Part shown: piece after piece, positions 5,057-6,311 of the stretch | How the letters are laid out: the number at the start of each line of letters is the position of its first letter | How positions within the stretch are numbered: the first letter of the stretch is position 1 | From: a virus | Taxonomy: Duplodnaviria; Heunggongvirae; Uroviricota; Caudoviricetes | Strand: one strand, 5' to 3' | Virus record (IMG/VR): IMGVR_UViG_2645728091_000019 | Length of the DNA stretch: 8,621 nucleotides | The notes under the pieces: model-generated | What the model was told of the DNA's origin: nothing | Seen by the model: the letters and a program-made list of their open reading frames with translations, nothing else | Databases searched by the model: none | Program-made: the position numbers and the translations under genes

Positions 5057-5336
5057 GCGTCCTGTCTCCCCGGTCTTTCTGCTGGGCGAGAAAATCGCGG
5101 CACAGGCCTTTGGCTTTCAGCTCATTCAGCACAAAATCAATATCTTCATTCAGGTAGCTGAAAATATGCGGAATGTAGAGCTGATGCAGACCGGAGAGTT
5201 CACGGTGAATCAAATCACCCCCAACAAACCGGGATACGGCGCTGGCGCGGTTGAGCTTATGGTAAGCCTCAATGCTGAGGTGTTCACGGGCGTCATGACG
5301 TGCTGAGACGGTCTGAGGGGCTTTTTTATTACGCAC
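5049..5336 (-). CDS. epsilon: epsilon-like protein (P2-repressor antagonist in P4), 95 aa with GTG start
   Basis: The ORF track extends this frame to 5492, but the only start with a ribosome-binding site is GTG at 5334-5336 (GGAGG, 6-nt spacer). No SD precedes the in-frame ATGs at 5417 and 5381, and the upstream extension is Cys/Pro/Val-rich and atypical. Assignment is by position and length. Confidence 0.55.
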
Positions 5337-5526
5337 GGGACACCTCCACCACCGGCAGACGGGCAGCAAGGGAGAGCACATAGTCACGGACAAGGGAACG
5401 GCGGGCGCTGCGTTCATCACCGGCGACGGTGCGAAGCATACAGATACGAGGATGACGGTCTGCGCGACGGACAGCCGCAAACACAAAGACAAATTCAGGG
5501 TGTGAGGGGGTAAGGGTTGTAGCCAT
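5329..5526 (-). CDS. 65-aa first ORF of the leftward operon (position of P4 kil; identity unconfirmed)
   Basis: ATG at 5526 preceded by GGAGG with 8-nt spacer. Its stop overlaps the epsilon GTG start region. It is the 3' end of a spurious-looking 214-codon frame on the ORF track. Confidence 0.45.
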
Positions 5527-5556
5527 GATGGCAGCCTCCGTTAGATAGCAGGTTAC

Positions 5557-5852
5557 GCTATCGCCGGAGTTCTCACGCTCGATGGCGATAGCCCAGACGG
5601 GGGTGAGAATACCGGCTCTAACGGATACCGGCCAGCCCGGAGGCTGCCCCGCCTGAGCTACCATTGACTCTGCGGCATAATGAGCGGACGCGGGCAGGAT
5701 GCACGGAATGCCATCTGCACGACTGACCACACACCACACCATAATCTGGCGCTCTGTGGCGTTGATTGCGACACAAAAAAAGACGCATGGCGCGTCATAT
5801 GTCGCCGTTAGATTGCTCGGGTTCTCACGCCCGGCTGCCGATTTTGCGGCAG
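5557..5852 (-). promoter_or_regulatory. Untranslated immunity leader with seqA-like and seqC-like target blocks and an internal hairpin plus U7
   Basis: 10-mer GTTCTCACGC directly repeated at 5569-5578 and 5821-5830. The downstream copy sits in the loop of a 9-bp perfect hairpin (GCTATCGCC 5557-5565 / GGCGATAGC 5584-5592). A GACGC-GCCAU-GCGUC hairpin followed by U7 lies at 5775-5796 (minus strand). Confidence 0.5.
5590..5660 (-). ncRNA. Candidate CI-RNA-like immunity RNA (seqB-like block); boundaries approximate
   Basis: The leftward transcript carries ...GGUAUUCUCACCCCCGUCUGGGCUAUCGCC..., complementary to GCGUGAGAAC blocks upstream (5821-5830) and downstream (5569-5578). This matches the seqA/seqB/seqC logic of P4 immunity (memory). 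Ends cannot be mapped from sequence. Confidence 0.3.
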
Positions 5853-5853
5853 C

Positions 5854-5895
5854 GGAAAAACTATATCCGCAAATGCCGGAAAAAGGCAAGCCAGA
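5854..5895 (-). promoter_or_regulatory. Sigma70-type promoter for the leftward operon (PLE-like)
   Basis: Minus strand TTGCCT (complement of 5884-5889), 18-bp spacer, TATAGT (complement of 5860-5865). Predicted start near 5853, about 330 nt upstream of the first ORF. Confidence 0.45.
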
Positions 5896-5924
5896 AAAAG
5901 GGAGTTTTTGCAGAGCGGGCATCA

Positions 5925-6191
5925 TCATGCGTCGTACCCCCGTTTGCGTCCGGCAATGCGCCCGGCCATCCATGCAGTGACTTCAGAGTGCAGCCAGGCC
6001 ACATTTTTACCGCCAAGACTCACCTGCGGCGGAAATTCCCCCTTACGGATGAGTTCATAGATGGTCGAGCGTGACAGGCCGCACAGGTGCATCACTTCCG
6101 GCAGACGTAAAAAACGCTCCTGCGTGATGTCCGGCAGCGGCATCAGTGGCGTCACAGGGGCGGGAGACGGGGAAGAAAAAACAGCTTGCAT
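5925..6191 (-). CDS. vis: Vis-like AlpA-family small HTH regulator/excisionase (88 aa)
   Basis: 88-aa ORF with an AlpA/Xis-like HTH core ([27 protein letters not shown]). GAGG 8 nt upstream of the ATG. Lies downstream of a TGT-N12-ACA site, as expected for a late leftward promoter. Confidence 0.65.
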
Positions 6192-6293
6192 CGGGCTACC
6201 TCGTTAATGTCCATACAGCACCGGATAAGTCCGTCCGGCTTCGGGTAGCGCTTTATTTTGTGAATATTTTCAGCAGACGCAACAGGGGGGATT

Positions 6294-6311
6294 TGTTCCG
6301 GCAGCCTTACA
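6294..6311 (-). promoter_or_regulatory. TGT-N12-ACA dyad: Delta/Ogr-type late activator site for the leftward late promoter (PLL-like)
   Basis: TGT 6294-6296, 12 nt, ACA 6309-6311. Centre is ~110 bp upstream of the vis ATG, compatible with a -55 activator site and a ~55-nt leader. Confidence 0.5.

Follow-up and report, generated by a model that had tools for sequence, protein, structure and literature searches.

In the satellite phage P4, superinfection immunity is conferred by the CI RNA, which brings about premature termination of transcription at t1, at t4 and at the Rho-dependent timm. This RNA is produced from the primary transcript by RNase P and PNPase/3' exonucleases. It reportedly raises the efficiency of t1 via the seqA target, t1 being thought to autoregulate CI RNA, and translation of the eta frame from PLL transcripts is said to prevent termination. 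Such switches can come in variants that differ in immunity specificity: P1 and P7 establish this principle, as do P4 and phiR73, which are reportedly an established instance of it, and the concept of an immunity address dates from work on P1/P7 and P4/phiR73. The Rfam families isrK and C4 represent structural homologs, respectively, of P4 seqA and of the P4 CI RNA (PMC3632133; PMC4825925).

Here we examine an 8,621-nucleotide stretch of DNA (the window) from a Caudoviricetes virus record (IMG/VR IMGVR_UViG_2645728091_000019). Its minus strand from 8621 to 1442 aligns collinearly with P4 positions 11460 to 4291 over about 7.2 kb, at 97.6% identity and without rearrangement, and the two share their gene order from psu to crr, i.e. 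psu, delta, sid, ori, ORF88 (vis), the old 'cI' ORF, epsilon, orf151, orf106, alpha and crr. The region under study, 5557-5852, is accordingly set in the P4 context, with vis upstream, epsilon, orf151, orf106 and alpha downstream, and sid-delta-psu divergent. A 901-base stretch containing it (5300-6200) is 97.1% identical to P4 across its full length, its counterpart (97% identical) being the PLE-seqA-t1-cI-seqC-kil/eta immunity region at about 8400-8730 of the P4 sequence (GenBank X51522/NC_001609). Shared by both are the promoter sequence, the two leader hairpins, the t1 stem with its U7 tract, the CI RNA scaffold, the a recognition block (GUGAGAA/UUCUCAC), the seqC hairpin, the Shine-Dalgarno sequence and the kil and eta frames; apart from the b recognition block considered below, the window shows a few further substitutions, located in the t1 loop and just 3' of the -10 hexamer. 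A first-pass annotation, made from the raw sequence, had proposed that the region follows the logic of P4 CI RNA immunity and had made its reading depend on similarity to the P4 cI/seqA/seqC region. Both points are borne out by the P4 alignment and by matches to the Rfam families C4, isrK and c4-a1b1 above their gathering scores, so that a real antisense-RNA immunity switch had been correctly recognized from the sequence. We regard it as highly likely that 5557-5852 serves as the immunity region in a close P4-family satellite prophage and that it works by the P4 mechanism. The feature as such is already known, a textbook antisense-RNA immunity switch, and the b block is the exception to its ordinariness.

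A 401-base query covering the region (5500-5900) matches 1056 of 5426 complete Escherichia coli genomes, with 100% identity in strains such as E. coli MDR_56. The regulators are masked in genome annotation, RefSeq giving only an 'Icd-like protein' CDS over the RNA genes. In E. coli MDR_56 (NZ_CP019903; locus L083, 6973-7572), for instance, a 199-aa 'host cell division inhibitor Icd-like protein' covers seqA, t1, cI and seqC and no RNA gene is annotated. In this copy alpha is intact, the element adjoins ssrA, and HEPN and DUF262 genes lie between int and psu.

Conservation was assessed on two sets of relatives. Eighty IMG/VR loci fetched via the Kil protein yielded 43 distinct leaders, which were aligned (alignment A2); a wider set of 147 distinct complete leaders (including loci L084-L203) was gathered by exact match to an identical 25-nt segment of the CI scaffold. 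All elements of the switch lie on the minus strand, and descending coordinates below run 5' to 3' along it.

Transcription would begin at a predicted PLE-type sigma-70 promoter (5889-5860) comprising a -35 element, TTGCCT (5889-5884), an 18-nt spacer and a -10 element, TATAGT (5865-5860). This is the sole promoter-like site found by scanning 5200-6300, and the P4 record X02534 annotates an identical -10 hexamer. The transcription start probably lies near 5853, where the match to the isrK model also begins; together with the terminator t1, such a start therefore implies a terminated RNA of 79 nt. The seqA/IsrK-like 5' leader RNA (5853-5776) consists of hairpin I (5853-5834), hairpin II (5833-5818) and t1. 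It matches isrK (RF01394) over the full length of the model, terminator included (5853-5776; 72 bits against a gathering score of 50), and a second model, c4-a1b1 (RF03163), likewise matches in full at 5866-5814 (49.5 bits; gathering score 46.7). The leader helices are 99.7-100% paired across the 43 distinct leaders. The 8-nt loop of hairpin II holds the first copy of GCGUGAGAAC (5830-5821), with the pairing core a1, GUGAGAA, at 5828-5822, and the first b target, b1 (UCUAACGG, 5812-5805), lies single-stranded after hairpin II and before t1, the P4 sequence at this place being UUCACAGG. The loop of hairpin I, CAAAAUC (5846-5840, within 5834-5853), is also invariant in all 43 leaders; a partner for it was sought, and there is no GAUUUUG in the leader.

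The terminator t1 (5796-5775) is formed by the hairpin GACGCG-CCA-UGCGUC (5796-5782) and a U7 tract (5781-5775), and is the only terminator-like site detected by a scan of 5200-6300. We take it to be the Rho-independent terminator t1 of P4, which lies between PLE and cI. The first-pass annotation had noted this hairpin with its U7 between the seqA-like and central blocks, exactly as found, and was unable to place a terminator only some 60-80 nt after the start. It falls into place as the 3' end of the isrK match; its stem and U-run show no variation in the 43 leaders, a hairpin with a T-run is kept at this position in 143 of the 147 leaders sharing the CI scaffold, and in the phage-plasmid phiKO2 a terminator is annotated at the corresponding position. 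When a1 and b1 were masked in a model of the nascent RNA, the probability of the t1 stem rose from 0.68 to 0.95, a modest effect that disappeared once the U-tract and downstream bases were included; the modelling thus gives a weak hint that pairing at seqA may favor t1. The spacer between t1 and cI (columns 91-188 of A2, about 5766-5670 in the window) varies by deletions of 9, 21 and 45 nt. These are all multiples of three, which fits selection for an open eta frame rather than for RNA structure in this interval.

The cI gene (5668-5581) encodes an RNA of the C4 antisense RNA family (RF01695), matched over its full length at 74.5 bits (gathering score 45). By itself it folds as the Rfam model predicts, with a basal stem (about 5663-5586) topped by two hairpins, at -48.1 kcal/mol (z -4.8), and all three helices are 100% paired in the 43 leaders. 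Its recognition block b' (UCCGUUAGA, 5625-5617) occupies the loop of hairpin 2, and its block a', UUCUCAC (5609-5603), the 'central block' of the earlier reading, lies in a single-stranded joint. In the minimum-energy fold of the unprocessed RNA, a' and b' are instead paired in cis with the downstream targets a2 and b2. Folding prediction, which had been put forward as a check, thus bears out the central RNA, whose energy alone stands out; z is only -1.4 for the 5' leader and -1.1 for the seqC hairpin stretch, and folding energy is therefore not used as evidence for either. The case for these two structures as real elements is instead drawn from the Rfam matches, conservation and covariation.

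The seqC hairpin (5592-5557) is a perfect 9-bp helix of GCUAUCGCC (5592-5584) with GGCGAUAGC (5565-5557), which displays in its loop the second copy of GCGUGAGAAC (5578-5569; a2 core 5576-5570) and ends 17 nt before the GGAGG (5539-5535) that serves as the kil Shine-Dalgarno sequence. The helix is 99.0% paired in the relatives, with two compensatory pairs. The first-pass annotation had described a 9-bp hairpin about 20 nt before the ribosome-binding site with the second repeat copy in its loop; this is correct, but it had not noticed that the 5' arm (5592-5584) also forms the 3' side of the CI basal stem, and hence that the seqC hairpin and the basal stem are mutually exclusive. At alignment columns 270 and 272, the CI stem accommodates changes through wobble pairing and the seqC hairpin through compensation on its other arm, so that both helices are maintained. 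The second b target, b2 (UCUAACGGA, 5545-5537), overlaps the GGAGG: with the pair U5625-A5537 the b':b2 duplex reaches 9 bp and takes in the initial bases of the Shine-Dalgarno sequence, itself 8 nt before the kil ATG (5526). This duplex is 99.2% paired in the relatives, with compensatory changes in 6 of its 9 pairs. In two relatives (L016 and L061) b2 carries small deletions. The kil gene (5526-5329) codes for a 65-aa Icd-like protein, a size that reportedly agrees with P4 kil. Counting from PLE it is the first gene to be translated, and what RefSeq names Icd-like protein is a longer ORF that shares its frame.

Targets and CI RNA are connected by two sets of complementary blocks. The sequence GCGTGAGAAC occurs exactly twice in the window (5830-5821 and 5578-5569), where 0.04 occurrences are expected and none of 200 shuffled sequences reaches two; the a' block UUCUCAC is the exact complement of the GUGAGAA in both copies (5828-5822 and 5576-5570). 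The first-pass annotation had seen precisely this repeat and its complementarity to 5603-5609. Block a is therefore as it described, but the pairing is in fact bipartite (blocks a and b), as in the c4 RNA of P1/P7, and the second block had been missed. Thus, TCTAACGG or its complement is present three times (5812-5805, 5545-5538 and, as complement, 5624-5617) against an expectation of 0.15, with 0 of 200 shuffles reaching three, and the CI hairpin-2 loop CCGUUAGA (5624-5617) pairs with UCUAACGG at both 5812-5805 and 5545-5538.

It is in block b that the window departs from P4. In the alignment of the leader stretch most of the differences fall in three clusters, which are the three b sites: the CI hairpin-2 loop reads CCGUUAGA in the window against CCUGUGAA in P4, and the two targets, one following hairpin II and the other abutting the kil ribosome site, both read UCUAACGG against UUCACAGG. 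The b block has, in other words, been exchanged relative to P4 at all three sites together. In modelled duplexes the cognate b pairings reach about -11 to -14.5 kcal/mol (e.g. -11.3 and -13.5), whereas crosses between window and P4 reach only about -4 to -7.3 kcal/mol. Since the b block differs at all three sites, the P4 CI RNA should recognize the window element via the a block only. The change predicts an immunity specificity different from that of P4, and with it incomplete cross-immunity between the two elements.

The comparison of relatives extends this picture. For seqA with CI, 98.8% of the 15 pairs are maintained across the 43 leaders, nine of them with changes on both sides, including three pairs in which a1 covaries with a' and six of the eight pairs between b1 and the CI loop; for CI with seqC the corresponding figures are 99.6% of 16 pairs, with nine doubly changed. 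Pairings slid out of register are only 41-53% (seqA:CI) and 35-54% (CI:seqC) paired, and no shuffle among 500 scores as high in either case. The helices within the leader and within CI RNA are 99.9% paired and near invariant. As read from the alignment, the pattern is that of a fixed scaffold bearing variable, matched recognition blocks.

In the wider set of 147 leaders we count at least eight 'a' alleles, 28 'b' loop variants and 46 combinations of the two. In 126 of these leaders, each of the four target blocks finds a match of 7 or more contiguous nt in the leader's own CI RNA; of 1456 random non-cognate pairings, only 43 attain this. The a alleles assort independently of the b alleles despite the interleaved order of their sites in the DNA (a1-b1 ... 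b'-a'-a2 ... b2). The address of the window combines an a block of P4 type with a b block of UCUAACGG type, and this combination recurs in five distinct leaders of the 147, i.e. it is not unique. Two natural recombinant leaders (L071 871-1207 and L057 871-1207; IMG/VR) have a seqA whose address type differs from that of their own CI RNA and seqC, from which it follows that seqA pairing is not indispensable. Satellites sharing one genome were found in two pairs only, of which one (L026/L027) has the same address and the other (L005/L075) different ones. One might tentatively propose, as a conjecture we hold to be improbable on balance, that the P4/N15/P1-related family uses a combinatorial address code generated by diversifying selection that favors a lack of mutual immunity between competing satellites. 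A large survey of P4-like satellites makes no mention of RNA immunity. That one scaffold carries such a combinatorial diversity of alleles is a side lead of modest weight, and the family-wide extent of this diversity offers a natural data set on the evolution of RNA-RNA specificity.

The whole leader is at the same time overlaid by a reading frame. An eta-like ORF of 214 aa (5973-5329), in the frame of kil, starts upstream of PLE and spans the RNA leader entirely; it is presumably P4 eta. It matches the Pfam family Phage_ASH (PF10554; E = 4.9e-27), and in 77 of 79 related loci no stop codon interrupts its frame within the leader. Pfam Phage_ASH thereby models the translation of an RNA leader. 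Epsilon (5336-5049) for its part matches PF25738 (Derepression; E = 9e-51) and has no Phage_ASH match. A survey of P4-like satellites uses PF10554 as its epsilon marker (PMC8628076), and this 'epsilon' marker probably detects the neighboring leader ORF instead.

Given this overlay, the stretch could be supposed to be simply protein-coding (eta/'Ash'/Icd-like), with the GCGTGAGAAC repeat as an Arg-Glu-Asn peptide repeat and the hairpins as incidental. Indeed both GCGTGAGAAC copies encode R-E-N, the Pfam match and the widely open frame are as just described, and RefSeq records a CDS here and no RNA gene. Yet the variable positions at three separate sites change jointly in a way that preserves base pairing and freely alters residues: the b swap converts NLT versus NSQ, VR versus CE and YLT versus YSQ between window and P4, which argues for selection on the b blocks at the RNA level. 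Three curated RNA models, moreover, match above threshold. Coding and RNA roles coexist, and coding alone leaves the pattern unexplained; we reject the coding-only reading on the strength of the covariation and assign it a negligible probability.

Whether the RNA switch still has something to control in this particular prophage is a separate question. The alpha primase-helicase gene (4130-1797), otherwise collinear with that of P4 with 10 other substitutions, has an in-frame TGA at codon 291 (3260-3258) where P4 has TGG (Trp291). P4 homology stops at 1442, just past crr, at the point where P4 has attP and int, and an IS21-family IstB ATPase ORF lies beyond it at 276-938 on the plus strand (Pfam IstB_IS21, E = 2e-100; IS100kyp family by its RefSeq name). 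A search of the window for tRNA and tmRNA genes found none, and hence no attachment-site tRNA was identified. A match to the IsrM model at 1234-1187 was dismissed, as it reaches 26 bits where the gathering score is 376 and involves no more than a terminator hairpin. The element may be replication-defective, and with such a possible defect (the alpha stop and the flanking istB) the circuit might no longer control anything useful. It would then be a relic in a decaying prophage, intact in sequence, controlling no replication and at most excluding satellites of the same address. The alpha stop, the truncated homology and the IstB ORF all speak for this, but every RNA element as well as PLE, kil, eta, epsilon, sid, delta and psu is intact, and a leader of 100% identity occurs in an element with an intact alpha. 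We consider it a real but lesser possibility; it bears in any case on the current use of the circuit and not on the identity of the feature.

Taken as a P4-type immunity region, the locus would operate as follows. A constitutive PLE (5889-5860) would transcribe leftward from about 5853, and the first 79 nt would constitute the seqA/IsrK-like leader, presenting a1 (GUGAGAA) in a hairpin loop and b1 (UCUAACGG) single-stranded and ending at t1. Transcripts that read through t1 would contain cI and, if handled as in P4 (RNase P and 3' exonucleases), would be processed to a C4-family CI RNA of roughly 80 nt, on which b' (CCGUUAGA), lying in a hairpin loop, and a' (UUCUCAC), lying in a single-stranded joint, would both be exposed. 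By pairing with seqA (a1 and b1) on nascent transcripts, CI RNA would favor termination at t1 and so limit its own synthesis, whereas by pairing with seqC (a2 and b2), with b2 overlapping the Shine-Dalgarno sequence, it would leave kil untranslated. In the immune state transcription would be halted before epsilon and alpha, presumably at sites 3' of seqC corresponding to t4 and the Rho-dependent timm of P4. On PLL transcripts from the upstream promoter, eta could be translated straight through the leader and immunity thereby escaped.

Beyond P4, the leader has a likeness in the Salmonella prophage Gifsy-1, where IsrK (RF01394) is similarly a 5' RNA of 77-79 nt that comprises two hairpins and an intrinsic terminator; a C4-like RNA (STnc1160) sharing complementarity with it is processed from the sequence that follows. 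The Gifsy-1 short RNA, however, activates translation of orf45-anrP in trans, whereas the window has cI-kil-epsilon downstream, and the documented role of P4 seqA, unlike that of Gifsy-1 IsrK, is as a target of CI RNA. One could ask if the short terminated RNA of the window activates a long isoform in trans rather than being a target of a repressor RNA. In keeping with this, the isrK model matches in full at 72 bits with its terminator, and the seqA RNA has been called a structural homolog of IsrK (PMC4825925); IsrK-like sequences of P4-like prophages have also been found to be required in S. Typhi by a mechanism that is unclear (PMC3632133). Against it, orf45 and the antiterminator gene anrP are not downstream in the window, their place being taken by P4 cI, kil/eta and epsilon at 97% identity, and the variable blocks of the leader change in step with the CI RNA loops, as is characteristic of a target or decoy for that RNA. 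A Gifsy-1-type function in place of the target role is thus very unlikely; the two roles are not strictly exclusive, since the short RNA could also titrate CI RNA, and an activating role of the Gifsy-1 type could be an additional one.

At the anti-immunity locus of the N15-like phage-plasmids (N15, phiKO2 and PY54), phiKO2 is 77-79% identical over the leader and the C4-like RNA and, like the window, has an icd-like gene after a terminator at the t1 position; downstream, however, these elements encode antA and antB, antirepressor genes of a full-size temperate phage, whereas the window encodes satellite replication genes. In the immI region of P1/P7, the c4 RNA (RF01695, RF03163) has the fold seen in the window, i.e. 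a long basal stem and two hairpins with the recognition blocks in a loop and a joint. Its a' block differs from that of the window (the model consensus of the P1-like form being UgCcAA), and the antirepressor gene ant lies downstream of icd where the window has epsilon and then orf151, orf106 and alpha. As in the window, the targets are duplicated on either side of the RNA gene, and the downstream one covers the ribosome site of an icd-like gene.
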